From positions 150,001-182,000 of the forward strand of contig JAPLKZ010000005.1 of NCBI GenBank assembly GCA_026387835.1: DNA of 32,000 bases. The letters are read 5' to 3'. Source of the stretch: Candidatus Saganbacteria bacterium (GTDB lineage: Bacteria; Margulisbacteria; WOR-1; JAKLHX01). The notes under the pieces are model-generated. The model was not told the DNA's origin. It saw nothing but the letters and a program-made list of their open reading frames with translations, and did not search any database. Below, piece after piece: positions 704 through 31,636 of this stretch (positions are counted from its first letter, which is position 1; the number at the start of each line of letters is the position of its first letter). The position numbers and the translations under genes were made by a program.

Positions 704-754
704 GTTATCCTTCCTTTCTTTTTAAGATAAATATAAATCCTTCATATACTTAGT

Positions 755-1903: not shown

Positions 1904-1960
1904 ATTAGCCTTCCTTTCTTTATAGAGAACTTTGATCATTTAGCCTCTTTTGGCCTCAAC

Positions 1961-1991
1961 TATGTATCGACAGAATATTTGAAAAATTTCA
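1961..1991 (-). promoter_or_regulatory. Alternative-sigma-type promoter, copy C: TGAAAT-N16-CGATACATA, reading toward the DUF4116 genes
   Basis: The minus strand reads gTGAAATttttcaaatattctgtCGATACATAg. TGAAAT is at plus 1986-1991 and CGATACATA at plus 1961-1969. It has the same spacing as the five other copies. Confidence 0.65.
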
Positions 1992-2018: not shown

Positions 2019-2049
2019 TGAAATTTCAGGAAATACCGATCGATACATA
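2019..2049 (+). promoter_or_regulatory. Alternative-sigma-type promoter, copy A: TGAAAT-N16-CGATACATA, upstream of the HIT-like gene
   Basis: Sequence acTGAAATttcaggaaataccgatCGATACATAcaag. It is followed by the RBS AAGAGGAG (2051-2058) and the ATG at 2065. The -35 part lies inside the perfect 12-bp palindrome CTGAAATTTCAG (2018-2029). Confidence 0.65.
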
Positions 2050-3958: not shown

Positions 3959-3967
3959 ATTATAACA
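3959..3967 (-). promoter_or_regulatory. Extended -10 box TGtTATAAT, 9 nt before the ATG at 3949
   Basis: The minus strand reads cgcgTGTTATAATtgttttgccATG. There is no Shine-Dalgarno sequence between the box and the start. Confidence 0.55.
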
Positions 3968-3981
3968 CGCGGCTGTTTTAC

Positions 3982-3990
3982 TGCTAAAAT
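3982..3990 (+). promoter_or_regulatory. Extended -10 box TGcTAAAAT, 11 nt before the ATG at 4002
   Basis: Sequence acTGCTAAAATatagttaaaccATG. There is no Shine-Dalgarno sequence. Confidence 0.5.
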
Positions 3991-4001
3991 ATAGTTAAAC
4001 C

Positions 4002-4727
4002 ATGCCGAAGATCACTGTAATACTGACTTCATACAATAAACCGGGTCTGGTCAGCCAGGCCATCAGGTCCGTTCTGGACCAGACCTGCAGGGACTTCGAG
4101 CTCATAGTTTGCGACGACAATTCAAATGAACAGACAAAAGCTGACATAAAACCGTTCTTTGCCGATCCCCGCGTGGTCTACCTGCAGTCGGATGTCAAAG
4201 AGGAAGAAAGACGGGAAAAGTGCAGGTACGCGCACATGATAAACAAAGCCCTTGAGATAGCGAAAGGGGAGTACATTTCGTACCTTTGCGACGATGATAT
4301 CTATTATCCCGAGAGGCTTGAGGTCATGGCAAAAGCACTTGATGAAGATCCAAAAAAGAACATCGTTTACGGGAAACAGAAGGTCGTGAGATTGTCCGGC
4401 AGGATCCTGGGTGTCACGACAGGCATCAGGGAGACGGTTGGCGTTACGTTCGAGGCAGGAGGGAATGTTGATCATAACTCGATAATGCACAGGAAATCAT
4501 GTTCGGACAAGGTCGGCGGCTGGGATGAAGGCAGGCAGTGCTGGGACAACGCGGACGAATATTTTTTCAAAAAACTCAACAAGCACTGGCCTTTCTACCC
4601 TATAGAGGAGGTCCTGGACGAGCACCGGTTGCACAAGAACAGCATGCAGTCGATCGTGGCTTATGAAAAGAGACTCAGTTCGAGGTTGTTGAAATGGTTT
4701 ACAGGACTGTTCAGCCAAATACCCTGA
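4002..4727 (+). CDS. Family 2 glycosyltransferase (GT-A)
   Basis: ITVILTSYNKPGLVSQAIRSVLDQTCRDFELIVCDDNSNEQT, and the DxD-type segment YLCDDDIYYP. Confidence 0.88.
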   Translation: MPKITVILTSYNKPGLVSQAIRSVLDQTCRDFELIVCDDNSNEQTKADIKPFFADPRVVYLQSDVKEEERREKCRYAHMINKALEIAKGEYISYLCDDDIYYPERLEVMAKALDEDPKKNIVYGKQKVVRLSGRILGVTTGIRETVGVTFEAGGNVDHNSIMHRKSCSDKVGGWDEGRQCWDNADEYFFKKLNKHWPFYPIEEVLDEHRLHKNSMQSIVAYEKRLSSRLLKWFTGLFSQIP

Positions 4728-5469
4728 TATATTCAGGAATGCTTTTTATCAGAGCGTCTATAATGCCCGCCTTTGCCTTGCGCTGCCTGAACCTTTTATT
4801 GAACACATAAAGTCTTGTGATGATCATCGCCTTTACCCTGATCTTTCCGGTGTTCATATTCCTGTCATGCATGCAGTAATCCGTCAGGGTCTCGTTCAGA
4901 TGGGCGATCTTTAATTTGTCTTTGAACCTTAACCACAGATCCCAGTCCTCTCCGCCGAAACGGATGATCTTATGGTCATCCCACATCCCTGTCTTTTCAA
5001 GAGCCTCTTTCCGGTGCATCATTGTGGATGGCATGGGCACGAAATAAAGGTCTTTTTCGGGCGGTTTTTTCGGGTTTGAAAAATCGGTAATACTCCGGAA
5101 TTTTCCGAACGACATGAATCTCGCATTGCTGTAAACGACATCAACGCAGCTGTTATTGTCAAGAAAATTTGCCAGTGTCTTGACATGGTCCTTGTGAAAA
5201 ATATCGTCGTGGTCGCAATAGGCGATATATCTTCCCTTTGAGGTCTTTATGCCGAGATTCCTGGCACTTGCCTGTCCGCCGTTTTGCTTTTTCAGATAGA
5301 CTATCCTGGGGTCTTTATAATCCAGGATAAAATTTTCGGTGTCATCTGTCGACCCGTCATTAATAATGATCAATTCAAAGTCCCTGTCACTTTGAGACAA
5401 TATCGCATCTATGGAAGGGCGGATATCTTTGCCGCGGTTATATGCGGCCATTATGATCGAAGTTCTCAT
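4711..5469 (-). CDS. Family 2 glycosyltransferase (GT-A)
   Basis: SIIMAAYNRGKDIRPSIDAILSQSDRDFELIIINDGSTDDT, and YCDHDDIF. Confidence 0.88.
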   Translation of the reverse strand: MRTSIIMAAYNRGKDIRPSIDAILSQSDRDFELIIINDGSTDDTENFILDYKDPRIVYLKKQNGGQASARNLGIKTSKGRYIAYCDHDDIFHKDHVKTLANFLDNNSCVDVVYSNARFMSFGKFRSITDFSNPKKPPEKDLYFVPMPSTMMHRKEALEKTGMWDDHKIIRFGGEDWDLWLRFKDKLKIAHLNETLTDYCMHDRNMNTGKIRVKAMIITRLYVFNKRFRQRKAKAGIIDALIKSIPEYIRVFG

Positions 5470-5478
5470 TGTTTTAGC

Positions 5479-6396
5479 TTAGCTGTCCCTGAATATTTCC
5501 TCAAAGATCTCCGGTAATCCCGGATATTTATTCTTTAATCCGAAATCCGACGGTGTAACGGTCTTATATTCCTGGTGGTATGCCTTAAGGCAGTATTTGT
5601 CCCATTCCCCGAGTTTTTTATCAAAGACCCTCGCGATAAGGTCGGCAGTCCCTTTTGAAAGACTCATTTGGAAACGGACAGGTATCTTGAAATACAGGCA
5701 AAGCGATCTTATCAGGTCACCGGCGGTTATTGCAATGTTACCGACAGTGAACTCTTTACTTCCGGTATCGTTCTTTAACAGATAAGCGGTTATCAGGGCG
5801 ATGTCCGCAGCATGGATGTAGTGGAACCTCAGGTCAGACGAGAAAAACCTTATAAGCCACAGCCATTTTTTTGCCTGCCTTAATGCAGTTGCAGCATGCG
5901 AATACGGATGGTCCTTGTCGCCGCCAAGTACCCAGGTGAGAAAAAGAGTATCGGTGCGGCCGGCTAAGGGTGAAGCTTTCAGGTGCTCATATAGTTTATA
6001 TTTTCCTTTTATGTACTCCGTTCCGCATGATAATACTTGCGGATCAGGCCTGTTGTTCTTATCGAGTATGCTGGCCGTGGAAAAATAGATGACCTTTTTA
6101 CAACGCGACGGATCAAGGTTCTCGAAAAGATCTATTGTAGATTCAAAATTGCCTGTTTGCGTACCCCAGTCCGCAAGAAGATGTATGCACGCATCCATTT
6201 CTTTCAGAAGGGATGAATATTTTTTGATATTCTTAAAATCATCATGTATGAGCTCAATGTTTGAAAGGTCAAACTTCGCTTTTTTAGGGTCCCTGATCAT
6301 CAGGTGGAGTCTGTAGCCGTCATCTTTTCTCAGTTCATCTATCAGATAATGTCCGACGCTTCCTGCCGCACCGGTGATGAAAACATTTTTTTTCAC
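5479..6396 (-). CDS. NAD-dependent sugar epimerase/dehydratase (extended SDR)
   Basis: N-terminal Rossmann motif VFITGAAGSVGHYL. It is 305 aa and embedded among glycosyltransferase genes. Confidence 0.8.
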   Translation of the reverse strand: MKKNVFITGAAGSVGHYLIDELRKDDGYRLHLMIRDPKKAKFDLSNIELIHDDFKNIKKYSSLLKEMDACIHLLADWGTQTGNFESTIDLFENLDPSRCKKVIYFSTASILDKNNRPDPQVLSCGTEYIKGKYKLYEHLKASPLAGRTDTLFLTWVLGGDKDHPYSHAATALRQAKKWLWLIRFFSSDLRFHYIHAADIALITAYLLKNDTGSKEFTVGNIAITAGDLIRSLCLYFKIPVRFQMSLSKGTADLIARVFDKKLGEWDKYCLKAYHQEYKTVTPSDFGLKNKYPGLPEIFEEIFRDS

Positions 6397-7535
6397 TTAA
6401 GCATTTCCTTGAATTTTGCCGTCCATTCTTTTGCGATCAGCGACCATGAATAATTCTCCCTGATGAATCTGACTGCCGCACAGCTCATTTTATTATATCT
6501 TCCCGGGTCTTTGAGAAGGGCTATAGTATCTGCAGCAAATCTTTCTTTGTACTCTTTGCTGAACGGGTCTCCGTCTATAAGGATGCCGGTTTCCCCGTTC
6601 CTGATGCTTTCCGGCATCGCACCCCGGTTCGACGTGATAACCGGACATCCGGCAGCCTGCGCTTCAAGCGCGGCTATGCAGCTGGTCTCGGCATAAAAGG
6701 CCGCGTGCGGCACTGCATGGCTGGGATACAAAAACAATCCCGACTTTTGAAGTTCCCCTGCAAGGTCGGAGTGTTTTCTTGTGCCTTCAAGATAGACCCT
6801 GTCCTGTTTTGTCTTTTCATATATTGTCTCTGCGACTATCCGGTCTTTTTCCTTCAGAACGCCAAGATCAAACCCGCAATAGATGTGAAGCGCCGCCTGT
6901 GGAACTTCACGTCTGATGAGCGGGAAGATATCGAGCAGCACGTCCAGTCCTCTCGCGGGCACGCTGGTGTAGACTAAACGATAAGGATTTTTCCTTGTGT
7001 CATTACCGTCAAAATACGGAAGATACGCGCCGTTCTTCGTGACGAATATCTTTTCTTTCCTGATGCCGAGCTTTTCCCCGCAGATCTTGCCGAGCCAGCC
7101 GCTGACAACAAAGAGACAATCACAGTACCTGTTCACAAGGGCCCCCGCTAACTTCAAAAACCCGGCCCCTAAATATTTTTTAAAACCCTTATAATTCCAG
7201 ACATTTGAAAAATCATCATGCCCCCACCAGATCCTTTTCTTTGCTTTAACGGGGAAGATAAAAGCGGGGAGGTCCCTGAAAGAAATGAAGATGTCGAAAT
7301 CCTTCTGTCTTGATATCTTTACGATCTCTGAAAGAGAATTGAACTGCCTGTAGTCCACGCCCTCATATATGCCTGCTTCTTTTCCGCAATTGTTAAAGAT
7401 GATTATTTCGTGGCCGAGACGGGCGAGTTCCCTTGTAAGGTAAAAGAGAGCTGATTCGCTGCCGCCGACAGGCCGTTCGAACACAGTATTCCCCGAGAAC
7501 GAGGTCGTCATCCTGGCCAGGATAAGGATCTTCAT
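6393..7535 (-). CDS. GT-B glycosyltransferase (GT4-like)
   Basis: C-terminal donor-binding region ETSCIAALEAQAAGCPVITSNRGAMPESIRNGETGILID. The N-terminus MKILILA is typical of GT4. Confidence 0.85.
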   Translation of the reverse strand: MKILILARMTTSFSGNTVFERPVGGSESALFYLTRELARLGHEIIIFNNCGKEAGIYEGVDYRQFNSLSEIVKISRQKDFDIFISFRDLPAFIFPVKAKKRIWWGHDDFSNVWNYKGFKKYLGAGFLKLAGALVNRYCDCLFVVSGWLGKICGEKLGIRKEKIFVTKNGAYLPYFDGNDTRKNPYRLVYTSVPARGLDVLLDIFPLIRREVPQAALHIYCGFDLGVLKEKDRIVAETIYEKTKQDRVYLEGTRKHSDLAGELQKSGLFLYPSHAVPHAAFYAETSCIAALEAQAAGCPVITSNRGAMPESIRNGETGILIDGDPFSKEYKERFAADTIALLKDPGRYNKMSCAAVRFIRENYSWSLIAKEWTAKFKEMLK

Positions 7536-8653
7536 CGCATCGCGGCCTTTCTGTAGAGTTCAAGCGTGTCGGACGCCATCTTCTTCGCGGAGAACAGTTT
7601 TGCCCTTGCAAGTCCTTTTTGTGACAACGCAAGCCTCCGTTCTTTGTTTGAAAGCAGGCCCCTGATCGCGTCCGCTATCCCGTCTATATTATACGGGTTA
7701 ACGAGGACCGCCGCATCACCGGCGACCTCAGGCATCGAAGAAGCATCCGATGTTATTACCGGTGTTCCGCAGGACATGGCTTCAAGGACCGGAAGTCCGA
7801 AACCTTCATAGAGAGAAGGCCAGACAAGCAGCTGCGCGCCGCTGTATAGCGCGGGGAGCTCTTTTTTCGGGACGTACCCGAGATATTTTACGGTGCCGGA
7901 CAGTTCAAGCCTTTTTATTTTATCGTTCAGGTCCTCTTTGAGCCATCTCTTGTCTCCCGCGATCACCAAGTCAGGAGGCGATTCATATTTAAGCTGGGAA
8001 TAAGCTTCAAGCACTCCCGAGATGTTCTTCCTTTCCTCTACCGGCCCCACAAAAAGGATGTAAGGCCTTTTTAAGCCGTATCTTGCCTTGACTAAACCGG
8101 TACGGTAGACCGTCTGCGGTACAAATTCATCGCCGATACCTTCATATATCACATTTATCTTCCCGGCATCCAGGGTAAAAAACTTAAGGACCTCTCTCTT
8201 CACAAAATCCGAAGGTACGATGACGGTGCCGGTGTTTTTCAGGACCTTTGCAAGGCGGTCTCTAAAAAAAACAGACCTGTCTTCGGGGTATAGTTCAGGC
8301 CTGGCTATCGAAGAGATATCGTGGACAGTGACGATATGGCTGCGGTCAGGTTCAGGCGTCGTAAGGGCAAAGCAGGCATCGTGGTAGACATCGATCCTCT
8401 GTCTTGCCGCGGACGAAAAAATACCGGGATTGACCAGGTTATGCTGTTTGAAATCGATACGGTTCTTCTTGAACAGGGGGACGGCAGAGCTCAGGACCAG
8501 GAATCTGTCTTTTTTTTCGACGACGCAAAGATATTTGATGAGATTGTAAGTATACGCCGATATGCCGTCGGCGTGCCCGAAAAGGCAGTTCCCCTCGATA
8601 CCGATGTTGAGCCGCTTATTACTTTGCATCCGGATAATATTTTTCCCTGTCAA
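7532..8653 (-). CDS. GT-B glycosyltransferase (GT4)
   Basis: YEGFGLPVLEAMSCGTPVITSDASSMPEVAGDAAVLVNP. The start is uncertain (8653 or Met9 at 8629). Confidence 0.88.
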   Translation of the reverse strand: MTGKNIIRMQSNKRLNIGIEGNCLFGHADGISAYTYNLIKYLCVVEKKDRFLVLSSAVPLFKKNRIDFKQHNLVNPGIFSSAARQRIDVYHDACFALTTPEPDRSHIVTVHDISSIARPELYPEDRSVFFRDRLAKVLKNTGTVIVPSDFVKREVLKFFTLDAGKINVIYEGIGDEFVPQTVYRTGLVKARYGLKRPYILFVGPVEERKNISGVLEAYSQLKYESPPDLVIAGDKRWLKEDLNDKIKRLELSGTVKYLGYVPKKELPALYSGAQLLVWPSLYEGFGLPVLEAMSCGTPVITSDASSMPEVAGDAAVLVNPYNIDGIADAIRGLLSNKERRLALSQKGLARAKLFSAKKMASDTLELYRKAAMR

Positions 8654-14862: not shown

Positions 14863-15794
14863 TTACGGGGTAGCTTGGCAAGGAATGACGGACTTTTCAA
14901 AGATTTTCAGGTCCGGACAGCTGCTTTCAAGTTCTATCTGTTTGGGGGTTATGAAGAAAGATCCGACGCCCTTATTTCCGCTGAGGTTGAGAAAGAAATA
15001 TTTATCATCAACATTGAATACCCGTACAAGGGGATCATGGCCCATCACTATCCTTTCGACGCCCATCCTTTTAAGGTCGCCGGGGTCATAACTGAAACTG
15101 CCCCCGGGTTCTATGTTCCGGCTATAAAGAAATCCTTCTTTGCCGAGCATCCGCCAGAAGATATTTGCGCAGCCGGTGGTATCCGAGGCAAGTGCAGTTC
15201 TGAGCTCGGATTCCAGTTCTTTGAGTACCTGGATGCCTGATGCGGTCCCGTTCCTGACCTTCTCGGACGCGAGCAGATATTTGAGGCCGGAATGCATATA
15301 AAGCGTACCGAGATCGTCGATATAATACAGGCGCATATTATCGGCCATCCATTTTGCGGTCTCGATCAACTTCCTGTTGCTTAAAATGTTGTTCAAAACA
15401 GTTTGGAAAAGACTTTTGCACAGAGCCGGGCGATTTCTTGTCCATGGCCTGAGGATATAATCCCCTTCTGACACTTCAGAGAACAATGCCAAAAAAATAT
15501 CGGCCCTTATCACGTCCGCGCGTTTTGACAGGGAAAATTCATCGGCCAGGCTTGTCCCGCCGTTAGTGAGCCAGTTAAGCGCCCATTCCATATTACCCCT
15601 CATCGCCAGAGTGAACATGATCTGTCTATCAGGTCTCCCAAAGGAACGGTTCGTGCCGCTCTTAATGAAAAATATACGGCCCTGTCACACCAATGGTCTA
15701 AGCCGTGCGCGTCGCCGAGAGCGGCAGTCCCGATGCGGCGCAATATAACAGCAGGTGCCTGCTGTCTTACTATTTTATGTTGGATAGGATCCAT
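14863..15794 (-). pseudogene. PPP-family (lambda-phosphatase/PrpA/ApaH-like) metallophosphoesterase, split across two frames with an internal deletion
   Basis: ORF 15600..15797 carries motif I (LGDAHG) and motif II (GDLIDR), then stops. ORF 14863..15618, in a different frame, continues with MRGNMEWALNWLTNGG (GNHE with His replaced by Met) and VMGHDP. The DR-to-RGN spacer is about 7 aa, against about 18 aa in lambda PP and PrpA. The ATG at 15794 is preceded by the RBS GGGAGGG. Confidence 0.65.
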
Positions 15795-15811
15795 CAAGCC
15801 CTCCCTATAAC

Positions 15812-15842
15812 TATTTATCGATAAAATTTGGGAGATATTTCA
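15812..15842 (-). promoter_or_regulatory. Alternative-sigma-type promoter, copy F: TGAAAT-N16-CGATAAATA, upstream of the split phosphatase gene
   Basis: The minus strand reads aTGAAATatctcccaaattttatCGATAAATAgttatagGGAGGGcttgATG. Confidence 0.65.
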
Positions 15843-15881
15843 TTGATTTTACTGAATATACGGTTATCTAAAAAAATTAAA

Positions 15882-15890
15882 TGGTATAAT
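15882..15890 (+). promoter_or_regulatory. Extended -10 box TGgTATAAT, 9 nt before the purN ATG
   Basis: Sequence aaaTGGTATAATttcaatgtaATG. There is no Shine-Dalgarno sequence. Confidence 0.6.
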
Positions 15891-15899
15891 TTCAATGTA

Positions 15900-18049: not shown

Positions 18050-18050
18050 G

Positions 18051-18131
18051 CCTCACCCCCGGCTCGCAAGCTCGCCGACCCCTCTCCACGAAGTGGAGAG
18101 GGGTGCTGAGCGTTAGCGAAGCGGGGTGAGG
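18051..18131. repeat. GC-rich nested palindromic element (REP-like; possible purH terminator)
   Basis: The outer arms are CCTCACCCC (18051-18059) and GGGGTGAGG (18123-18131). The inner hairpin is aCCCCTCTCCAC-gaa-GTGGAGAGGGGt (18078-18104, 12-bp stem). No T-run follows. Confidence 0.5.
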
Positions 18132-18150
18132 ATTAAAAAGGAGACAGACG

Positions 18151-19932: not shown

Positions 19933-19938
19933 ATTATA
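19933..19938 (-). promoter_or_regulatory. -10 box TATAAT, 10 nt before the tsaC ATG
   Basis: The minus strand reads tataTATAATatcatcagccATG. There is no Shine-Dalgarno sequence. Confidence 0.5.
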
Positions 19939-19940
19939 TA

Positions 19941-19949
19941 TGGTATAAT
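19941..19949 (+). promoter_or_regulatory. Extended -10 box TGgTATAAT, upstream of the TPR gene
   Basis: Sequence taTGGTATAATttggaattaaaagttaaaaATG. There are 19 nt between the box and the ATG at 19969. Confidence 0.55.
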
Positions 19950-19968
19950 TTGGAATTAAAAGTTAAAA

Positions 19969-21531: not shown

Positions 21532-22503
21532 ATGGAAGAAGTCCAGTCAATACAGCAATTAGAAGAGATCCTTGAGCGAAAAGGCCCTTCTTTCGACGTT
21601 ATCATAATCGGCGGCGGGCCGGCCGGGCTCACTGCCGCGATATATTCCTCGCGTTCAGGCCTTAAGACGCTTTTAATAGAAAAAGCCCTCCTGGGCGGCC
21701 AGGCATCTCTTTGTCCGGCCATCGAAAATTATCCGGGTTTTCCTTCGGGGATATCCGGAGCGGAGCTCTCGTCAAGGCTCGAGGACCAGGCCAGGAAATT
21801 CGGGACTGAGATAATCTGGGGCGACGTGAACGGCATTTCGCTGGAGGGCGACCAAAAAAAAGTCGGTCTGAACGATAAGATATTTTCGGCAAAGGCCCTG
21901 ATATTGGCATCGGGCGCAGAACCAAAAAAACTGAAGATCCCCGGTGAGGACGAGTTCAGGGGAAGGGGAGTATCATATTGCGCGACCTGCGACGGCGCTT
22001 TTTACAGGGACAAAGAACTTGTCGTGATAGGGGGAGGCAATTCGGCCGTGTCGGAAGCGATATTCCTGACAAAATTCGCGTCAAAGGTGGGGATCATCCA
22101 CAGGAGAAGCGTATTAAGGGCCGATAAGGTGCTTGGGGACCGCGCTTCTTTTGAGCCGAGGATCTATTTTGTGTGGGACAGCGTGCCCGAAAAGATCAAC
22201 GGAAAAGATACGGTCACTTCTATAGAAATAAAGAACGTGATAACGGGAAAAACCTCGAGGATAGAGACCGACGGAGTGTTCATCTATATCGGAGAACATC
22301 CCAATTCATCTCTTGTCAGGGGCCTTGTTGATATTTCGGAAGACGGATCCGTAATTGTCGATGACAGGATGATGACGTCATGCAAAGGCATATTTGCCGC
22401 CGGGGATGTCTGCCGGAAACATCTGAGGCAGATAGCGACAGCGGTCGGCGACGGTGCACTCGCGGCCGACTCGGCTCGAAAATATATCGAAAACATGATA
22501 TAA
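21532..22503 (+). CDS. trxB: Thioredoxin-disulfide reductase
   Basis: FAD site DVIIIGGGPAGLTAAIY, redox motif CATCDG, and NADPH site VIGGGNSA. Confidence 0.93.
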   Translation: MEEVQSIQQLEEILERKGPSFDVIIIGGGPAGLTAAIYSSRSGLKTLLIEKALLGGQASLCPAIENYPGFPSGISGAELSSRLEDQARKFGTEIIWGDVNGISLEGDQKKVGLNDKIFSAKALILASGAEPKKLKIPGEDEFRGRGVSYCATCDGAFYRDKELVVIGGGNSAVSEAIFLTKFASKVGIIHRRSVLRADKVLGDRASFEPRIYFVWDSVPEKINGKDTVTSIEIKNVITGKTSRIETDGVFIYIGEHPNSSLVRGLVDISEDGSVIVDDRMMTSCKGIFAAGDVCRKHLRQIATAVGDGALAADSARKYIENMI

Positions 22504-22525
22504 TTTTTTCTAGGAGGCTAAATAA

Positions 22526-23364: not shown

Positions 23365-23964
23365 ATGGCTGTAACACCCGAGATGGTGAAAGAACTGCGT
23401 GAAAAAACGGGCTGTGGGATGATGGACTGCAAAAAAGCCCTTGAAGAGTCCGGGGGCGATATGGCAAAAGCGGCGGAGCATCTCAGAAAAAAAGGCCTTG
23501 CCTCAGCGGCTCAAAAAGCGGAAAGAGCGGCCTGCCAGGGCATTATCGAATCTTATATACATCTCAATTCTAATATCGGTGTGATGATCGAGCTGAACTG
23601 CGAAACAGATTTTGTCGCTAGGAACCCTGAATTCAAAGAGCTTGCAAGGGATATCGCGATGCAGGTGTGCGCGGCCTCGCCGATGTATGTCTCAAGAGAG
23701 TCCGTGCCGCAGGCGCATCTGGACCATGAAAAAGAAATAATAAAGGCCCAGTCAAAGACAGAAGGAAAGCCTGAGCATATCATAGAAAAGATGATGAAAG
23801 GCAGGATCGAAAAGTTCTACAGCGAGGTCTGCCTGGTAGATCAGCTTTTCATAAAGGACCAGGATAAAAAGATAAGCGACCTCATAAAAGAAAAGATAGC
23901 CAAGTTCGGCGAGAATATAGTAATAAAGCGCTTCACAAGATATCAAGTTGGAGAAAAGATCTAA
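23365..23964 (+). CDS. tsf: Elongation factor Ts (short form)
   Basis: [27 protein letters not shown] prefer the ATG at 23365 over the TTG at 23359 given in the track. Confidence 0.92.
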
Positions 23965-26677
23965 TACGCCCGTAATCTACCTCATAGATGGGAACTCTCT
24001 GGTCTACAGGGCTTTCTACGCCCTTCCCGACACGATGAAGACCGCTTCAGGCATCACAACAAACGCAATTTACGGTTTTACTAACATGCTTTTAAGGCTT
24101 CTCGATGACAAGCCGGATTACATCGCGATAGCTTTTGACAGGCCGGAACCCACTTTCAGGCACAAAGAATACTCTGAGTACAAAGCCCAGAGGCAGAAAG
24201 CTCCCGATACGTTAAGGCAGCAGTTCCCTTACATCAAGGAGTTGATCTCGATGTTTTCGATCCCGGTATTCGAGATGGCCGGTTTTGAAGCTGACGACAT
24301 CGTGGCCACGATCGCAAAAAAGGCCGAGAAAGACGGGATGAAAGCGGTGATAGTCACGGGAGACAAAGACACTTTTCAGCTCATCAATGACAGTATAAAT
24401 GTTCTTACCGCGGTAAAAGGCATAACCGAGACCATGCTTTACGACAGCACTAAGGTCAAAGAAAGGTTCGGGATAGAACCCAAATTCCTTCTTGATTATA
24501 AATCCCTTGCCGGTGACCCGTCGGATAACATACCCGGAATCCCGGGGGTGGGGGAAAAGACGGCGGTATCCCTGATATCAAAATTCGGTGACCTTGAGTC
24601 GATAATAAAGAACGCCGATACTCTTGAAGGTAAACTTAAAGACAAGATAAAAAACAATGTCGGGATCGCCCGTCTTTCAAGAAGGCTGGCCGAACTGGTG
24701 ACGGACATGCCGCTGGACATAGATTTCAAGAAACTTGAAAGGAAAGAAATAGACTGGCCTTCAGTGTTTCCGCTCCTTGAAAAGTTCGAGTTCAAAAGCC
24801 TTCTGAAAAAATACGGCAAGGACCAGACAATCGGTTTGTTCGCACAGGAAAGCAGGGAAAAAGTCAGGCAGGCCGACGAGAATACGGATTATAAGTTGAT
24901 AGAGAACGGCAAAGACCTCGATTCTCTTATCGGAGAGATCAGATCAGCAGGCGCATTTGCTTTTGATACGGAGACTACATCACTTGATACAATGACTGCC
25001 AAGCTTATAGGCATTTCAATATCCTGCAAATTATGCAAGGCTTCTTTTATCCCTGAAGGTATTATTTCAAAGTTTGGAAATGCAGAAAAACTGAAGGATA
25101 TATTTGCGGACTCAGAAATAAAAAAATACGGCCATAATCTTAAATATGACATAGAGATCCTTAACGGTCACGGCATAGAAGTCCACGGTATAGATTTTGA
25201 CACTATGGTAGCCGCATATATTCTGGACCCGACTGCAGGGAAATTCGGCTTAAAGTTCCTCGGAGCAAAGTATTTCGGAAAGATCATGACCAGCTATGAA
25301 GAGCTCATGCTTGCTGACAATGCAAAGGATATCAAGAACACGGATATTGAAGATCTCAAAAATTATGCCTGTGCCGATGCGGATATCACATTCCGGCTCC
25401 AGGAAGTGCTGCGTAAAGAACTGACGGAAAAAGGGCTTCTCAGCATATTTTCAAATATCGAAGTGCCCCTGATCGAGGTCCTTGTGAAGATGGAGGAGGA
25501 CGGCGTCTCGATCGACGAGGCAAAGCTTTCTTTCCTGTCAAAGGACGTTTCCAAAAGGATCGAACGCCTTGAGATAGAGATATATGCCATCTGCGGCGAG
25601 AAGTTCAATATCAACTCTCCAAAACAGCTTGCCGAGATACTTTTTAATAAGCTGAAGCTCCCGAAAGGCAGAAAGACAAAGACGGGACAGTCAACTGACG
25701 CGTCAGTCCTTGAATCCCTGGCCGGCAATTTCGAGATTGCGCAAAAACTTCTCGAGTACAGGCAGCTCGCAAAGCTGCAGAGCACTTATATCGACGCGCT
25801 TCCCCAGATGGTCAACAAGAGGACGGGAAGGATACACACGTCATTTAACCAGATCATCACGGCGACAGGCCGCCTTTCAAGCAGCGATCCAAACCTGCAG
25901 AACATACCGATAAGATCGGACCTCGGCAAGATGATAAGGGATGCTTTTGTTCCTGCAAATGACGGGGACATGATCCTGTCCGCCGATTATTCTCAGATAG
26001 AGCTACGCATACTCGCGCACCTCAGTAAAGATCCGGAACTGATAAAGGATTTTATCGAAGACAAGGATATTCACTCCGCTACCGCGGCTGACATATTTGG
26101 TGTCAAATTCGAAGAAGTAACAAAGGAGATGAGGACCTTCTCGAAAACGATAAACTTCGGCATTGTTTACGGTATGAGTTCCTACGGTCTCGCGAAAACA
26201 CTCAACATCAAACCCAGAGAGGCTGAAGAATACATCTCTAAATATTTCAACAAATATAAAGGTGTAAAGGCGTTCATGGACAACACGATTCTTTTTGCAA
26301 GAAAGAACGGCTATGTCGAGACCCTTCTCGGCAGGAGAAGGTATTTAAGGAATATCGACAGCTACAACCAGAACGAGAGGCAGGCTGAAGAGAGGATAGC
26401 TGTCAACACACCGGTGCAGGGAACAGCCGCCGATATAATCAAAGCGGCTATGATAAAGATCTATAATAGACTGAATGTAAGGGCGGGTTTAAAACCCGCC
26501 CCTCTCAGATCAAAAATGATACTTCAGATCCACGATGAGCTTGTGTTCGAATGCCCGAAGGAAGAAGTCGAACAAGTTAAGACGCTTGTCAGGGATCTCA
26601 TGTCAACGGCCGTTCCTCTTGATGTCCCCGTCAAAGTCGATATCGGTGTTGGGAAAAGCTGGGGCCAGGCGAAGTAA
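23948..26677 (+). CDS. polA: DNA polymerase I (5'-nuclease, 3'-5' exonuclease and polymerase domains)
   Basis: [15 protein letters not shown]. Exo motifs [17 protein letters not shown] and YACADAD. Pol motif A DYSQIELR and motif [10 protein letters not shown]. The TTG start at 23948 overlaps the tsf end, and the start is uncertain. Confidence 0.93.
26654..26677 (+). repeat. Direct repeat copy 1 (the authentic polA 3' end, AAAAGCTGGGGCCAGGCGAAGTAA)
   Basis: A 24-bp exact match to 28652-28675. Confidence 0.9.
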
Positions 26678-26753
26678 AAATACCATTGTCCTTCGTACTC
26701 AGATTCTTAATAAATACTTTTAATTAGCGCCTTACCGAAATAATGTGGACAGG

Positions 26754-26784
26754 TGAAATTCTTGGCGGAAAAACACGATGATTA
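26754..26784 (+). promoter_or_regulatory. Alternative-sigma-type promoter, copy D: TGAAAT-N16-CGATGATTA, upstream of the 615-aa gene
   Basis: Sequence ggTGAAATtcttggcggaaaaacaCGATGATTAtattgataacatATG. The -10 tail is more divergent than in the other copies. Confidence 0.55.
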
Positions 26785-26796
26785 TATTGATAACAT

Positions 26797-28644
26797 ATGA
26801 ATATTCAGGGATTTACAATGAGAAATATTTCCGCTTCCATGAGGAGCGGGTGTATCCCGGCGAGGGCACTGACTGAATTTGACAGGCAAAGATTTCGTAT
26901 CGTTAAAGGTCTTCAGGATCCGTACGGCCGGTTTGTTTATGCCCCGGAATCTGCGAGCATTTCCATGACACGAAAGTGCAATTCAACCTTTTGCCCTCAA
27001 TGTGCCCCTGATTCTACAGCAGGTTCAAACCTTTCTCTAAGCAGAGAACAAGTCAAAAAAATTATGGGCGATCTCGCAGAGATTCCCATCAATATGCTAT
27101 ATATCGAGGGTGGCGAACCGACACTTGAACTTGATAATACATTACTGGCGTCCCGTCTTGGAGCGCATATTTTAAACATGTACGGATTTAGTCTCGAGAG
27201 CAATCTCTCGTGGGCATCTACAGAGGATAGCACAACTGAAATGCTGTCAAGGCTGGCAACCCAGGGGATCGAGCGAAATAGAAAAATCTTTGTGACAGGA
27301 GGGAACCTCGACTCTTTTCATGATTTTGTCCCATTGCAAAATCACATCAATCTTGTGCGTCAATTCTGGCGATATTTCCCAAGCGGGGAAATGGTATTCT
27401 CCCGTTTGGAAGACCCTAACGACGACTCGGTAACAAGATTTATCCAACTTCTTAAGGAACAAGGCTGGCGTTGCGATTATAAGGAGATCCCGACAGACCC
27501 AGAATTATATCAAACTCCGGCAGTTGAAGAGATAAATATTGATATGGGGTCCCATGCGGGAGGTAAAAGAAAGATCTGCATACAGCATAAATTCCCTGTC
27601 CTTGTAGGCAGGGGAAAACAGCTGAGGCAAACCCCTTACTTGGACTGGCTAAACGCAGCAAGAGGAAAGCAGGTCGACATGCGAGAAGATAAAAGCACTA
27701 TATTTCCTGAAGCTGTCGAAAGCGAAGGGCAAATCGTGAGCATAGGATGGGACGGTCTCGTTTATCTTAATCCTATGTTCATGCATACGCAGACGTATCC
27801 GCTGGGCTCGATCGACGAGGAAGACCTGTATTCGATAATCAAGAGGGCAAATAAAGATCCGCTAGTGAGACGGCTGGTGGCAAGAGGATTCGGAAGTATT
27901 TTTAGGGTCGCTGCAAAGATATTTCCGCAGCTTGCGCATTTTGACCCAAGGCTGGGCATAAATGAAATCTGCATAGATACTCTTCAAAATCCTGAGCAGA
28001 ATCTTGCAATACTTGAAGGGATATTGAGAGAAGAAGGAGAGTTAACTACTGCAGCGGCAAGGTTGAAATCCGCCCCGGATAGTATTGACATAAAAGCTGC
28101 ATTACAGGACTATGCGAGCCGGGACTGGACAGGAATCGAGAATACTTTTGTATGGTGCGCAACAGATAAGGTCGCGGAGCTTACGGTAGAAAAGCAGATT
28201 GAGACGATCAGCGCAACGGACCTCAAAGGATTTGAGACGCAGATCCTGTTCTCTCTTGTAATGAGAGCAGAAGAAAAAAGGAAAAAAGAGCTGCTGTGCA
28301 TGGCGGTGGCGGATAAAGCACTTTTATTAAAACTTTTTGGCCCGCCGATGTATTCGGATTATATTGACGGGCAAAAAGAGTTTGCCTGTAAAGTATTTGC
28401 GGGCATAATTGCGGAAAAGGGGAGTATCCCTCTTCCTGCAGACGAAAAAGAAGAAAAACCGTTTTTAGACGTGCTTGTGGCATTATTAAACATCGGCGCG
28501 ATAGATATTTTCTTTAAAAAATATGAAGTATTGCCTGGCACTGATCAAGCAAAGATGAATAAAATCATTTTAAAAGACGCCGATCTTTTCTCTGTAATTG
28601 TTGACAGATTAGGGGACGCATGGATGAAGAAAGGCCCGAAATGA
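26797..28644 (+). CDS. Radical-SAM-like protein with non-canonical CX4CX2C and a long helical C-terminal extension
   Basis: SMTRKCNSTFCPQCA (Cys61/66/69, nt 26977-27003) is followed by the SAM-binding-like LYIEGGEPTL, then SLESNLSW, VTGGNLDSFHD, and a Cys-less SPASM-like stretch VSIGWDGLVYLNPMF...PLGSIDEEDLYSII. The last 230 aa or so are unrecognised. Confidence 0.5.
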   Translation: MNIQGFTMRNISASMRSGCIPARALTEFDRQRFRIVKGLQDPYGRFVYAPESASISMTRKCNSTFCPQCAPDSTAGSNLSLSREQVKKIMGDLAEIPINMLYIEGGEPTLELDNTLLASRLGAHILNMYGFSLESNLSWASTEDSTTEMLSRLATQGIERNRKIFVTGGNLDSFHDFVPLQNHINLVRQFWRYFPSGEMVFSRLEDPNDDSVTRFIQLLKEQGWRCDYKEIPTDPELYQTPAVEEINIDMGSHAGGKRKICIQHKFPVLVGRGKQLRQTPYLDWLNAARGKQVDMREDKSTIFPEAVESEGQIVSIGWDGLVYLNPMFMHTQTYPLGSIDEEDLYSIIKRANKDPLVRRLVARGFGSIFRVAAKIFPQLAHFDPRLGINEICIDTLQNPEQNLAILEGILREEGELTTAAARLKSAPDSIDIKAALQDYASRDWTGIENTFVWCATDKVAELTVEKQIETISATDLKGFETQILFSLVMRAEEKRKKELLCMAVADKALLLKLFGPPMYSDYIDGQKEFACKVFAGIIAEKGSIPLPADEKEEKPFLDVLVALLNIGAIDIFFKKYEVLPGTDQAKMNKIILKDADLFSVIVDRLGDAWMKKGPK

Positions 28645-28651
28645 TATCTGT

Positions 28652-28675
28652 AAAAGCTGGGGCCAGGCGAAGTAA
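28652..28675 (+). repeat. Direct repeat copy 2 (displaced remnant of the polA 3' end)
   Basis: Identical over 24 bp to 26654-26677. With upstream GATATCtGT it reads D-I-C-K-S-W-G-Q-A-K-stop in the polA frame, against the authentic [12 protein letters not shown]-stop. Confidence 0.9.
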
Positions 28676-28702
28676 TCGCCCCATTATTCCGCTCAAAATG
28701 GA

Positions 28703-28733
28703 TGAAATAATTTAAATAAATAATCGATATATT
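28703..28733 (+). promoter_or_regulatory. Alternative-sigma-type promoter, copy E: TGAAAT-N16-CGATATATT; the ATG lies 6 nt after CGATAT
   Basis: Sequence gaTGAAATaatttaaataaataatCGATATATTtatATG. There is no room for a leader or a Shine-Dalgarno sequence. Confidence 0.6.
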
Positions 28734-28736
28734 TAT

Positions 28737-30185
28737 ATGCAATTCAAATGGATACATGAAGGGCCGATATATCAGGCGATGGTTAAAGACCATGGAGGTT
28801 TTACCGCTATAAAAAGAAGATTGCCTTATCTTGCGGAAAGGAATATAAAGACTATTTGGTTATGCGGCGTCCAAGAGAACCATAACGGGGTCTCGCCCTT
28901 CGCCTTAACGGACCCGCTGGCAGTCGAAAAAAAATATGGTACCGAGGACGATCTAAGGGATCTGATCAATACCGGGCATGAAAAGCACGGGTTCAGGTTC
29001 ATCGGTGATTCCATATTGAACCACGTTTCAAGAAGCAGTGCATTACTAAGGAGCCATTCTGACTGGTTCTTAAGATACCCGAGCGGTTGGATAAGATATG
29101 GCACTGACCTTAACAATGAAAGCGTAGATAAGCCTTTTGTGCCGGGAAAAGATTGTTGGAGGTTCGAGGATACGGCGCAATTTGATTTCCTGGCCCCGGG
29201 ATTAAAACAGTATTTGATAGACTCCGGATATTTCATGCTTAACCTAGGCTTTGACGGGCTGAGGATGGATGCGCCAATGGCGCTCCTAAAAAATAGAATG
29301 AAATATAATTGGTACCGGGGCAGAGAACATGAAGTGGATAAAGTGTTCCGGGATGAACTCCTCAGAGAGTTCATATATCTTATGAGGGAAAGAAGAAATG
29401 ATGCCTGTTTTGTGGCGGAATCTTTTCAGATGCATAAAGAGATGATCTCTTGCGGGATCGATGTGGCCTATGATCCGGGATGCGTATATAAGGCATACGA
29501 TGTTTTTAAACGTCTTGCAGATGTGGAGACATTCGATAGATATCTCAGCGACATCTGTTCGAATGGAGGTGAAAGTTCGTTCTGCATGGCCCATTTCAAG
29601 GACGGACATGATATAAGGGATACCCGCTGCAATGACGAAGGAATGAAAAAACCAAGGAACCTTGACCCTGCCGAGCTCAAGGTGGTGGCGACGCTTATTG
29701 CGACCATGCCCGGGGTGCCGATGTTATTCAACGGGGAGCTTGAGGCGGTCAGAGGATACGGCTATGACAGGGAAGGCACTTCTTTTATAGATTTCGGCAA
29801 CATCGACGGTGACCTTGCCTCTTTCAATTATGCCCTTTCCAAATTGTGGCGCATGCCGCTGTTCAGACAAGGCGGAACCGATTATCTTCCTACAAGGGAC
29901 GGATGGACATCCGGCGGTATAAGGGCATTTGCGAGGCAGTTCAACGGCGAAAAGGCTGTCGTCGCGGTAAATATGCATTCAGATTACGCGTGGACAGCTT
30001 ACAGGTCATTTGGTGTCGATCCTCTTCTCTGGGGTCTTGGGGACGGCCGTAAGATCATGGTGCGTGACATGATGACCGGCCAGCTGTTCCATGAGACGTC
30101 AGCCGGTGATCTGAGGACGAACGGACTTAAAGTCGGGCTTTGGCCCAAGGGTTCTCAGGTCCTGCAGCTGATACCGAAAGATTGA
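28737..30185 (+). CDS. Alpha-amylase-family (GH13) catalytic-domain protein, cytoplasmic
   Basis: All four GH13 regions are present: GDSILNHVS (I), GFDGLRMDAPM (II, nucleophile Asp), FVAESF (III, Glu), and AHFKDGHD (IV). There is no signal peptide. Confidence 0.8.
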   Translation: MQFKWIHEGPIYQAMVKDHGGFTAIKRRLPYLAERNIKTIWLCGVQENHNGVSPFALTDPLAVEKKYGTEDDLRDLINTGHEKHGFRFIGDSILNHVSRSSALLRSHSDWFLRYPSGWIRYGTDLNNESVDKPFVPGKDCWRFEDTAQFDFLAPGLKQYLIDSGYFMLNLGFDGLRMDAPMALLKNRMKYNWYRGREHEVDKVFRDELLREFIYLMRERRNDACFVAESFQMHKEMISCGIDVAYDPGCVYKAYDVFKRLADVETFDRYLSDICSNGGESSFCMAHFKDGHDIRDTRCNDEGMKKPRNLDPAELKVVATLIATMPGVPMLFNGELEAVRGYGYDREGTSFIDFGNIDGDLASFNYALSKLWRMPLFRQGGTDYLPTRDGWTSGGIRAFARQFNGEKAVVAVNMHSDYAWTAYRSFGVDPLLWGLGDGRKIMVRDMMTGQLFHETSAGDLRTNGLKVGLWPKGSQVLQLIPKD

Positions 30186-30222
30186 TCCTTCCGGCGCATT
30201 TCTTAGAGCACCTAAAAAATAC

Positions 30223-30253
30223 TGAAATTTCAGATATTTCCCGACGATAGATA
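30223..30253 (+). promoter_or_regulatory. Alternative-sigma-type promoter, copy B: TGAAAT-N16-CGATAGATA, upstream of the 256-aa orphan
   Basis: Sequence acTGAAATttcagatatttcccgaCGATAGATAtatg. It has the same CTGAAATTTCAG palindrome (30222-30233) as copy A. Confidence 0.65.
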
Positions 30254-30304
30254 TATGAGTTCAAAAAGAGCTCAATTAATAAGTTCCAATAAAGGAGAAA
30301 TGCG

Positions 30305-31075
30305 ATGAGTATATATGCTTTTCAAGCTGGATCAAAAAGAATAGATATTGGCGGACGTCTGGCAATGGACGTGCTTCCCGCGGCTCATCTTAAGAGGTTC
30401 CTGGCTAACGGGATCCTTCCGAGAACCCGGCTTTACGGAGATTTACGCACAGTCGATCTCAGAAATCCTAATATGCCGGTCGAAGTGGAGGAGGCGGCAC
30501 GCCTTCAGAAATTCCTCGGCAAGGAAGCATATGCCAAAATGGCCGCCCGCGAGCCTATTCAACTTGCTGTCAGGACTTCGGTAAACACGCCAAAATATGC
30601 TATGAATGAATATCCTTATAAATATATATCGCTTGCATTTTCCCTTTTTGGCAGCCCCGGCGAAGGACGGGCATATAATATGGTCATAACTCCGTATGCC
30701 GGGCTAAGTCATCCGGTCATGGAATTTAACTGGGCGGATATATTTTCGCACGGCACAGACTGTTTACCGTATTTCAATCTGACAAGACTTGAGATCATCA
30801 AGAACCCAGACACTAACTCGACTTCAAAATTCCTTGTCAGGAGAATGCAGCTGGTTGACAGGCATGACCAGGGACTGGCAGCTGTTTTTTTCAAGAACAC
30901 TCCGTTATCCGCCTGGACGGGACTTGTCGATCCTCCCGGAACGAAAGGGAAGGATAACAGATATATGGGAATGTATTTTTTGGGCAATTTAGCCTGCGCG
31001 CTTGACCGTATCGAGAAAATGTTCCCTGTGCATCAAGCTCTTGATCGCGATTTGAGAAAGAAAGAAGAGGCTTAG
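30305..31075 (+). CDS. Hypothetical protein, no recognisable domain
   Basis: 256-aa ORF with the RBS AAAGGAG 7 nt upstream of the ATG. No overlapping ORF on either strand is longer (longest 92 aa), and the composition is non-repetitive. Confidence 0.7.
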   Translation: MSIYAFQAGSKRIDIGGRLAMDVLPAAHLKRFLANGILPRTRLYGDLRTVDLRNPNMPVEVEEAARLQKFLGKEAYAKMAAREPIQLAVRTSVNTPKYAMNEYPYKYISLAFSLFGSPGEGRAYNMVITPYAGLSHPVMEFNWADIFSHGTDCLPYFNLTRLEIIKNPDTNSTSKFLVRRMQLVDRHDQGLAAVFFKNTPLSAWTGLVDPPGTKGKDNRYMGMYFLGNLACALDRIEKMFPVHQALDRDLRKKEEA

Positions 31076-31117: not shown

Positions 31118-31594
31118 CTAAAAAGTTGTAGTTCGCCCCTTTTTATCAGATCTTAACGTTCTGAAGAAATCTTTTAATATATCCATGCAATCTTCTTTGC
31201 AAACGTCCTTGATAATTTTTACCTTGTGATTTAACCGCTTGCTCTTTAAGATGTTCATGATGCTTCCCGCAGCCCCGGCTTTCGGGTCAGCAGTGCCATA
31301 GATCAAAGTCCTTATCCTTGAAAGGACCATGGCTCCGGCGCACATGGGGCAGGGCTCGAGCGTTGTGTACAGATCGACCTTGTTAAGTCTCCATGTTTTC
31401 ATCTTTTTTACTGCTTTTTGCAGGCACAGAAGCTCGGCATGGGCGGTCGGGTCATTCCTTTTTTCTTTCTCGTTGTGAGCCCTTGCGATGACCTTGCCGT
31501 CGAGGACCGCCACTGCGCCGATGGGAACGTCGCCGGTCTTAAGTGCTTTGTTGGCCTCTTTGATGGCAGACCGCATAAAATGTTCATGTTTCAT
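31118..31594 (-). CDS. tadA: tRNA adenosine(34) deaminase
   Basis: Zinc motifs HAELLCL and PCPMCAGA. It is 158 aa. Confidence 0.92.
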   Translation of the reverse strand: MKHEHFMRSAIKEANKALKTGDVPIGAVAVLDGKVIARAHNEKEKRNDPTAHAELLCLQKAVKKMKTWRLNKVDLYTTLEPCPMCAGAMVLSRIRTLIYGTADPKAGAAGSIMNILKSKRLNHKVKIIKDVCKEDCMDILKDFFRTLRSDKKGRTTTF

Positions 31595-31616: not shown

Positions 31617-31625
31617 TGCTAAAAT
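31617..31625 (+). promoter_or_regulatory. Extended -10 box TGcTAAAAT, 11 nt before the pyrR ATG
   Basis: Sequence taTGCTAAAATgaaaggcacaaATG. Confidence 0.5.
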
Positions 31626-31636
31626 GAAAGGCACAA

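Follow-up and report, generated by a model that had tools for sequence, protein, structure and literature searches.

What brought together the three genes that lie between polA and tadA in Candidatus Saganbacteria, and do they serve one pathway? We analyzed a stretch of 32,000 nt (hereafter the window) of the metagenome-assembled genome contig JAPLKZ010000005.1, in which rpsB-tsf-polA is followed by three plus-strand open reading frames (ORFs) and then by the convergent tadA. The three ORFs encode a radical-SAM-like protein of 615 amino acids (aa), a GH13 alpha-amylase-family glycosidase and a 256-aa ORFan. A first-pass annotation of this DNA reported that each of these co-oriented genes is preceded by its own copy of the motif TGAAAT-N16-CGAT, and both the ORFs and the exact copies are indeed present. 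It also took the genes for separate units in an accessory block and proposed that, together with a HIT-like gene elsewhere in the window, they form a condition-specific carbohydrate module. Our analysis suggests, with a probability of about 0.62, that the interval grew by accretion, one at a time, of three independent units, each made of a single gene and its putative promoter, and that it is not a pathway operon. The features of the interval are as follows.

23948-26677, plus strand: polA, DNA polymerase I, 909 aa (Pfam DNA_pol_A, 4.5e-166, plus exonuclease domains)
26654-26677, plus strand: direct-repeat copy 1, AAAAGCTGGGGCCAGGCGAAGTAA, the last 24 nt of polA, ending on its TAA stop codon
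26678-28651, plus strand: candidate cassette of 1,974 bp (76-nt spacer, putative promoter motif, radical-SAM-like gene, 7-nt tail), with one repeat copy on either side
26754-26779 (to 26786 with its extension), plus strand: motif copy D, TGAAAT-N16-CGATgatta, 17 nt before the start codon of the radical-SAM-like gene
26797-28644, plus strand: radical-SAM-like gene, 615 aa (608 aa if the start is Met8; PF04055, 25.4 bits)
28652-28675, plus strand: direct-repeat copy 2, a pseudo polA 3' end, identical at 24/24 nt and 7 nt past the radical-SAM stop codon
28703-28728 (to 28735 with its extension), plus strand: motif copy E, TGAAAT-N16-CGATatatt, 8 nt before the GH13 ATG
28737-30185, plus strand: GH13 alpha-amylase-family glycosidase gene, 482 aa (PF00128, 4.7e-17)
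30223-30248 (to 30255 with its extension), plus strand: motif copy B, TGAAAT-N16-CGATagata, 56 nt before the start of the 256-aa gene
30305-31075, plus strand: 256-aa ORFan, with a strong AAAGGAG ribosome-binding site and a clear in-frame coding signal
31118-31594, minus strand: tadA, tRNA adenosine deaminase (MafB19-deam, dCMP_cyt_deam_1), the right-hand boundary of the block

The polA-tadA arrangement is not an assembly artefact, because four independent Logan assemblies span polA through tadA, and the arrangement is identical in all of them. The 256-aa gene was found in ten independent Logan assemblies, whose overlap with the window is 100% identical. All Logan assemblies of the organism were 100% identical, so that they offer no variation for tests of selection or polymorphism. 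In NCBI, 100% matches were obtained for the 615-aa protein (NTZ10_01755) and the 256-aa protein (NTZ10_01765).

A fixed-spacer motif precedes the three genes

The exact motif TGAAAT-N16-CGAT occurs six times in the window, against 0.18 copies expected, and none of 100 shuffled sequences reached six. All six copies fall within the intergenic 3.4% of the window, and each is directed at the adjacent gene. Allowing one mismatch added only a single site, which is probably due to chance, and 1.14 Mb of unrelated loci, used as a control, contained 0.14 copies per 32 kb, as expected by chance. In addition to copies D, E and B, the window contains the following three.

1966-1991, minus strand: motif copy upstream of a DUF4116-repeat gene (755-1939, minus strand)
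2019-2044, plus strand: motif copy upstream of the HIT-like gene (2065-2991), which encodes HMHVQ
15817-15842, minus strand: motif copy followed after 22 nt by a 64-codon ORF at the head of a lipopolysaccharide (LPS)/glycosyltransferase gene run

The motif is conserved in contigs of Margulisbacteria/Saganbacteria relatives. It precedes GH13 orthologs that are 38-46% identical to the window protein in loci L002, L003, L005, L028 and L031, where the copies are exact or else have a CGAT box changed only in its first or last position (TGAT in L003); in L029, it precedes the first gene of a two-gene unit containing GH13. In locus L001, a one-mismatch copy (CGAA) precedes a homolog of the radical-SAM-like gene, and each of the next three hypothetical genes has its own copy. 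Other genes preceded by the motif encode a DUF4116 protein, a HEAT-repeat protein, a family-less pair of about 296 aa (L005 and L029) and several family-less ORFs. One member of the GH13 cluster is annotated as Candidatus Margulisiibacteriota. Across the 17 gene-proximal sites tabulated, the spacer is invariably 16 nt and the ATG lies 8-56 nt downstream; the motif is asymmetric, strand-specific and oriented towards the gene. The extended consensus is AA....TGAAATT-N15-CGATAnATA, with the -10 part, CGATAnATA, drawn from 12 sites.

Housekeeping units use another element, an extended -10 of the form TGnTAtAAT, which lies ahead of purN, the TPR-lptC unit, rpsB, two glycosyltransferase genes and a phosphoribosyltransferase gene. 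Sites of the form TGnTA(t/a)AAT, belonging to housekeeping and LPS transcription units, are located at 15880-15892, 19938-19950, 22497-22510, 3960-3975, 3985-3995 and 31617-31627; an example ahead of purN and of the TPR-lptC unit is TGGTATAAT. Because TGAAAT-N16-CGAT is conserved, gene-proximal and oriented, has a fixed spacer and is distinct from the housekeeping TGnTAtAAT, it is best read as a promoter of an alternative sigma factor, which we consider likely. It is from the enrichment, position and conservation of the motif that we infer this role, the identity of the sigma factor and the transcription start sites discussed below.

Each unit of the interval would thus open with its own promoter, TGAAAT-N16-CGATAnA(T), read by an alternative sigma factor of Saganbacteria/Margulisbacteria. 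If transcription starts about 10 nt past the T of CGAT, near 26789, 28737 and 30258, GH13 would be leaderless and the other two genes would have short leaders. In four genes, the ATG lies 8-12 nt after CGAT (window 28737, GH13; L001:2977, radical-SAM; L001:6904, 372 aa; L005:4497, GH13), which predicts leaderless mRNAs, probably so for GH13 of the window. For the remaining motif-driven genes, the predicted leaders measure 17-56 nt, and an AGGAG-type ribosome-binding site is present in most of them. The earlier view of the three genes as separate units, not one operon, gains support here: each has its own conserved promoter-like element, so that co-regulation is plausible. The three genes would probably be switched on jointly, as members of a larger regulon whose proteins are for the most part lineage-specific and without a known family.

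An exact copy of the motif was also observed in antisense orientation inside a conserved 548-aa gene downstream of mlaD in two species (L003:3307-3332; L028:1641-1666, minus strand). Such a copy might drive antisense transcription, or conservation of the coding sequence might explain it.

The candidate sigma factor

The sigma-28 promoter of Pseudomonas aeruginosa fliC has TCTAAAG as its -35 element (positions -36 to -30) and GCCGATAA as its -10 element (positions -15 to -8; PMC12784957). Promoters of sigma-28 (FliA/SigD/WhiG, group 3; consensus TAAA-N15-GCCGATAA) share with the window motif an asymmetric two-block layout and a -10 core of CGATA(A/T), and the distance from AAA to CGATA is 17 nt in both the fliC promoter and the window motif. 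Both would also define a discrete regulon set apart from housekeeping TGnTAtAAT promoters. FlgV homologs occur in Margulisbacteria, which is the sole, indirect hint towards a FliA/SigD/WhiG-family sigma gene. The differences count against this assignment. The -35 block of the window is TGAAAT, with GAAA in place of the TAAA of (C)TAAA(G), and the GC before CGAT, the extended -10 of sigma-28, is not conserved (about 0.1 and 0.4 bits at the two positions). The genes downstream encode GH13, radical-SAM, DUF4116, HEAT-repeat and family-less proteins and not flagellar, chemotaxis or sporulation functions: none of the 17 motif-downstream genes has a flagellar, chemotaxis or developmental domain. No sigma gene was found in the DNA examined, including about 41 kb of this genome. 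A sigma-28 family factor is our tentative assignment, and we put it at somewhat below even odds.

An extracytoplasmic function (ECF) or other alternative sigma factor is a real alternative, in which case the genes would be co-regulated as part of an envelope response, a stress response or a program specific to the lineage. The promoter of the Bacillus ECF factor sigma-W reads TGAAAC-N16-CGTA, and the window motif resembles it in its TGAAA-type -35, its 16-nt spacer and a -10 that opens with CG. The GAAA block and the flagellar genes missing downstream of every copy would fit such a factor as well, and one copy heads the LPS/glycosyltransferase run. On the other hand, the -35 ends in AAT where AAC is the ECF hallmark, the -10 is CGATA(n)A as in the sigma-28 element and not the ECF core CGT(A/C), the AAA-to-CGATA distance exactly equals that of sigma-28, and no pair of ECF sigma and anti-sigma genes adjoins any copy. 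We regard an assignment to an ECF or other sigma factor outside the sigma-28 family as rather unlikely.

The radical-SAM-like gene lies between two copies of the polA 3' end

A second copy of the final 24 nt of polA lies behind the radical-SAM-like gene, at a spacing of 1998 nt. No further match to this repeat was found in the window at up to three mismatches (0.00 expected), and it is the only short repeat of the window apart from the DUF4116 paralogs. The repeat is present in all Logan assemblies spanning its site. Exactly one motif and one gene lie between the copies. The earlier description of the block as accessory agrees with this duplication around the radical-SAM-like gene and with the location of the GH13 orthologs elsewhere in relatives, described below.

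A hairpin, GGCGA-AGTAA-TCGCC, is joined to repeat copy 2, which is probably the original terminus of polA, with the hairpin once directly behind polA. The radical-SAM-like gene would then be a cassette of 1,974 bp that entered directly after the stop codon of polA. A Campbell-type event at a short stretch matching the 3' end of the gene exactly would leave the 24-nt duplication on both sides, driven either by an integrase acting in trans or by short homology. The predicted empty site is ...GGTGTTGGGAAAAGCTGGGGCCAGGCGAAGTAA|TCGCCCCATTATTCC, and the predicted junction of the excised circle is GAAATGATATCTGT-AAAAGCTGGGGCCAGGCGAAGTAA-AAATACCATTGTCC. The exact 24-mer was absent from the Joint Genome Institute (JGI) metagenome contigs. 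A polA search of genome contigs returned only polA genes of other phyla (40-44% identical) and no Saganbacteria polA-tadA interval.

A second locus, L001, is built in the same way but is larger. Besides the true 3' end of its pnp gene (minus strand; 8108-8194), it contains copies of this end at 4678-4764, 5585-5626 and 6798-6859, with 94% identity over 87 nt for the copy at 4678-4764 and repeat lengths of 87, 62 and 42 nt by event. The pnp stop codon is the common boundary of all four copies. Between them, downstream of the radical-SAM homolog (L001:2900-8200), lie three motif-bearing genes that encode proteins of 234, 272 and 372 aa and are unrelated to one another and to any Pfam family. An origin of the arrays by tandem duplication was considered and rejected, because no paralogy was found among the motif-driven proteins. 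The repeat copies fold no better than shuffled sequence by their z-scores, which leaves attC-like folding unsupported.

Integrative elements commonly target the 3' ends of housekeeping genes and leave attL and attR sites that include the gene end; they decay to integrase-less cis-mobilizable elements (CIMEs) and accrete (PMC5704250). The 24-nt repeat might therefore be the att scar of a decayed, CIME-like element that once had an integrase, instead of the trace of an intrinsically single-gene mobile unit; islands of tycheposons, in which partial tRNA copies have been pushed in, display the same pattern. What speaks for single-gene units is that all four repeat-bounded units, the one here and the three of L001, measure 0.9-2.0 kb and contain exactly one putative promoter and one ORF. 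Roughly 40 kb of this genome and roughly 15 kb of L001 contained no integrase or integrase fragment, and the repeat length in L001 differs from event to event. A decayed element is the less favored origin, and we consider it improbable, though by no means negligible.

The repeats also bear on whether the motif is a promoter at all. It stands at the 5' edge of every cassette-like unit, and one L001 copy begins 10 nt past the end of a repeat copy, as might be the case for a recombination-site part marking cassette boundaries; a regulator operator would be another such role. Against both, the motif is asymmetric and strictly gene-oriented with an invariant 16-nt spacer, and it keeps a distance of 8-56 nt to the ATG but 10 to about 300 nt to the repeat junction. 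Several ATGs stand 8-12 nt past CGAT, as leaderless starts would have it, and the motif is also found at GH13 loci that have stable synteny and no repeats. We consider an operator or recombination site very improbable and retain the promoter of an alternative sigma factor.

GH13 has orthologs at another site in relatives

The GH13 label of the first-pass annotation held firmly: PF00128 scored 62.8 bits against a cut-off of 22, and regions I-IV (D91/N95/H96, G171-FDGLRxD178, E228, H291-D292) are invariant in eight sequences, including the catalytic residues D178/E228/D292. The best PDB matches were 4E2O (1.1e-12) and 5OT1. The protein shares regions I-IV and the Asp/Glu/Asp triad with these members of the family (4E2O, an alpha-amylase; 5OT1, a type II pullulanase), and it differs in being minimal (482 aa) and remote from the nearest structures (E about 1e-12). 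Sequence inspection revealed no signal peptide. The enzyme is probably active in the cytoplasm as a hydrolase or transferase of alpha-glucans. Its clade is small and lineage-restricted, with eight matches among 5.8 billion proteins in a word-index search.

GH13 orthologs were located on six distinct contigs. In five of the six, the gene lies between mla genes (mlaD) and purQ-purS-purB and is convergent with purQ; the contig of L002 starts just upstream of GH13, so that only the purQ side is visible. A GH13 profile search of metagenome contigs added one true ortholog locus, L031, from the same species as L005, and the remaining 79 loci were generic GH13 genes, which served as negative controls. 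GH13 of the window would be the relocated ortholog of a conserved regulon member whose site in relatives is the mlaD-purQ interval.

The mlaD-purQ interval is itself variable in relatives (L005:5957-9086, L031:11440-14569, L029:1578-2525). It contains extra motif-driven genes, namely those of a 704-aa HEAT-repeat protein and of the family-less protein of about 296 aa, with divergent motif copies 7 nt apart. The latter protein has the N-terminus M(S/A)KIAYVTDLHLT and orthologs in L005, L031 and L029.

The 615-aa protein is a divergent radical-SAM-like protein

The label "radical-SAM-like" was kept in part and is fair but weak. The score of the 615-aa protein for PF04055 is below the cut-off of 29.5. 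Besides itself, its sole homolog among 5.8 billion proteins is P0002, with 31% identity over about 530 residues, and this homolog is above the Pfam cut-offs for both Radical_SAM (43.1) and Fer4_12. The GGE motif is kept, LYIEGGEPTL being invariant in both proteins. The cysteine motif diverges: P0002 has the canonical CNLNCSHC, whereas the window protein has CNSTFCPQC, a Cx4Cx2C with a one-residue insertion. CxxxCxxC is absent from the 615-aa protein, and its sequence is identical across independent assemblies.

A two-sequence profile of the 615-aa protein and P0002 matched YydG (5.6e-10), GDGT-MAS, an archaeal tetraether-lipid synthase (2.3e-6), and SkfB (1.2e-3), over the N-terminal 130 residues only. 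YydG (an epimerase) and SkfB (a thioether synthase), the best solved-structure matches to this region, share with it the cluster loop, the GGE motif and the SN..W..S strand. They differ in that only the N-terminal core aligns, the 615-aa protein having neither a SPASM nor a twitch Cys-rich domain; the window copy has the Cx4Cx2C motif and a C-terminal region of about 300 residues that is all-helical and has no family match, and no precursor-peptide gene is evident.

NCBI annotates a 516-aa product in which the first 99 residues (26797-27093), including the cysteine motif, are left out. The long form, starting at Met1 or Met8, is the correct one, because homology to the L001 protein reaches into residues 25-36. 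The true start of the L001 homolog is probably the ATG at 2977 and not that at 3049.

The 256-aa gene is a species-restricted ORFan

In the word-index search, the 256-aa protein matched only itself among 5.8 billion proteins. An exhaustive phmmer search against 1.84 billion representatives likewise returned the self-match and two weak extras, which were rejected as homologs because their scores came from internal repeats. No match was found in Pfam, NCBIfam, PHROG, PADLOC or PDB. The codon frame score of the ORF was 0.134, compared with -0.24 and -0.42 in the other frames. By its sequence, the gene is a true, species-restricted ORFan.

Structure prediction, which had been suggested as a check on the 615-aa and 256-aa proteins, did not help. 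The AlphaFold2 models were unusable (pLDDT [predicted local distance difference test] 39 from the two-sequence alignment of the 615-aa protein; pLDDT 34 from the single sequence of the 256-aa protein), and with models this poor no fold search was run. The low-confidence model of the 615-aa protein has alternating beta/alpha elements over residues 52-230. A common N-terminal targeting peptide of the motif-driven proteins (MSIYAFQAGSKRI resembling MMIRAAQSISKRI) was rejected as a candidate, as pairwise N-terminal scores were not above those of control proteins.

The genes do not behave as a carbohydrate module

The first-pass annotation combined the block with the HIT-like gene into a condition-specific carbohydrate pathway, in which GH13 would act on alpha-glucans, the radical-SAM-like protein as a radical enzyme and the HIT-like protein on nucleotide sugars. 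Some observations favor it: the motif is common to all four genes, GH13 is a real alpha-glucan-type enzyme, the HIT-like protein (308 aa) contains HMHVQ, and a large glycosyltransferase/LPS cluster lies in the window. The proposal nevertheless fails the test of co-occurrence in other genomes that the first-pass annotation had itself set as refuting. None of the six contigs with a GH13 ortholog has a radical-SAM, 256-aa or HIT homolog beside it, and the radical-SAM homolog of L001 lies between purL and pnp in a 14.7-kb locus with no GH13 homolog; the genes thus co-occur in no relative. The 256-aa protein has no homolog at all. The radical-SAM-like gene would be a separate insertion, and its nearest solved relatives, YydG and SkfB, modify peptides. 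As for the HIT-like gene, a candidate for the GalT-like branch of the HIT superfamily, the signature stands, but the family match is sub-threshold (PF01230, 18.9, below 21.5), there is no NCBIfam or PDB match, and the gene is 24 kb away. A shared motif does not imply a shared pathway, because the motif also precedes unrelated genes. We conclude that a common carbohydrate pathway is most improbable and that accretion of independent units is the better account of the interval.

Strength of the accretion reading

Several points weigh against piecemeal accretion. The promoters are putative, and no convincing intrinsic terminators were found between the three block genes, so that transcription from polA may read through. 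What speaks for the insertion is the repeat alone; no empty site, circular form or recombinase was found, and cassette loci are known at only two places. GH13 and the 256-aa gene lack a flanking repeat: neither is flanked by degenerate extra copies of the polA repeat or by a duplicate of the tadA 3' end. Their status as cassettes or accessory genes draws on lost synteny, ORFan status and low codon adaptation and GC content at third codon positions (GC3). Finally, the window radical-SAM copy, with its Cx4Cx2C motif, may be inactive.

A broader proposal would extend accretion beyond this locus. Single genes equipped with the promoter of one alternative-sigma regulon would move as minimal cassettes, insert exactly behind the stop codon of an essential gene such as polA or pnp, leave a duplicate of its final 24-87 nt and stack into arrays, with no cassette-borne recombinase. 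For Saganbacteria/Margulisbacteria, this would be an undescribed route to accessory regions, and we regard it as doubtful.

Coding signal and other features of the window

A coding signal is present in all three ORFs of the block, and their GC3 and codon adaptation are below those of core genes. For this comparison, five motif-driven genes were listed (755-1939, 2065-2991, 26797-28644, 28737-30185 and 30305-31075). Four of the five have a GC3 of 0.41-0.52, compared with 0.49-0.66 for the other window genes, and GH13, at 0.53, is near the low end of the latter range. Codon adaptation was 0.66-0.75 in the five genes and 0.74-0.83 in the others, with partly overlapping ranges. The low values fit either weak expression or more recent arrival. 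An Rfam scan of the window gave no match. Scans against PHROGs and PADLOC gave no meaningful match, so that a phage or defense-system reading is without support.

Within 15597-15842 (minus strand), the 64-codon ORF that heads the LPS/glycosyltransferase run has a strong AGGGAGGG ribosome-binding site and overlaps the start of a 251-aa ORF (14863-15618) in a different frame. The two ORFs jointly carry GDxHG, GDxxDR, GNxE and GH motifs, and may be a frameshifted or split metallophosphoesterase gene. Tandem paralogous DUF4116-repeat genes at 1-1939 (minus strand) contain long internal DNA repeats (for example, 1688-1921 against 488-721, 82% identical), and Logan contigs end at these repeats. Between purH and the gene of a 395-aa signal-peptide protein, a long nested GC-rich inverted repeat at 18050-18135 has outer arms CCTCACCCCCG...CGGGGTGAGG and inner arms CCCCTCTCCAC-GAAG-TGGAGAGGGG; it may be a terminator or an element of the repetitive extragenic palindromic (REP) type.

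Implications

Rejecting the sugar pathway avoids a wrong functional annotation. The putative promoter class is sharply defined in an uncultured sister lineage of Cyanobacteria, and it separates a lineage-specific, mostly family-less regulon from housekeeping genes by sequence alone, giving a handle with which "dark matter" genes can be grouped by regulation. If the broader proposal held, the outcome would be a mobile, self-promoted cassette regulon of largely ORFan proteins. Small, streamlined genomes without obvious mobile elements could then gain and shuffle accessory genes with the target gene left intact, and the precise junction sequences could be searched for in reads as a sign of cassette mobility.

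Comparison with known mobile elements

Among described processes, those closest to the present loci are tandem accretion of the ICESt1 type with CIMEs (PMC5704250) and the tycheposon islands treated below; both differ in that every unit here is one gene with its own putative promoter. As in CIMEs, integrase-less DNA is flanked by direct repeats that take in the end of a conserved gene, the 3' end of polA in the window and that of pnp in L001. The L001 units are likewise stacked, with older repeat copies displaced from the gene. The units here differ in being single genes of 0.9-2 kb, each with its own putative promoter, and not decayed multi-gene islands; their repeats vary in length (24-87 nt), and no recombinase was seen.

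Integron cassette arrays also consist of unrelated single-ORF cassettes in one orientation with repeated boundary elements. The boundaries here are copies of the 3' end of the neighboring gene and not attC hairpins, each cassette would have its own promoter, and no intI or attI was found in the loci.

In the tycheposon islands of Prochlorococcus, repeated integration leaves partial copies of the tRNA target amid cargo genes (bioRxiv 10.1101/2020.12.28.424599), and the loci described here share the scattering of partial target copies through an accessory region. Tycheposons target tRNA genes and carry a tyrosine recombinase and replication genes, whereas the targets here are the 3' ends of protein genes.

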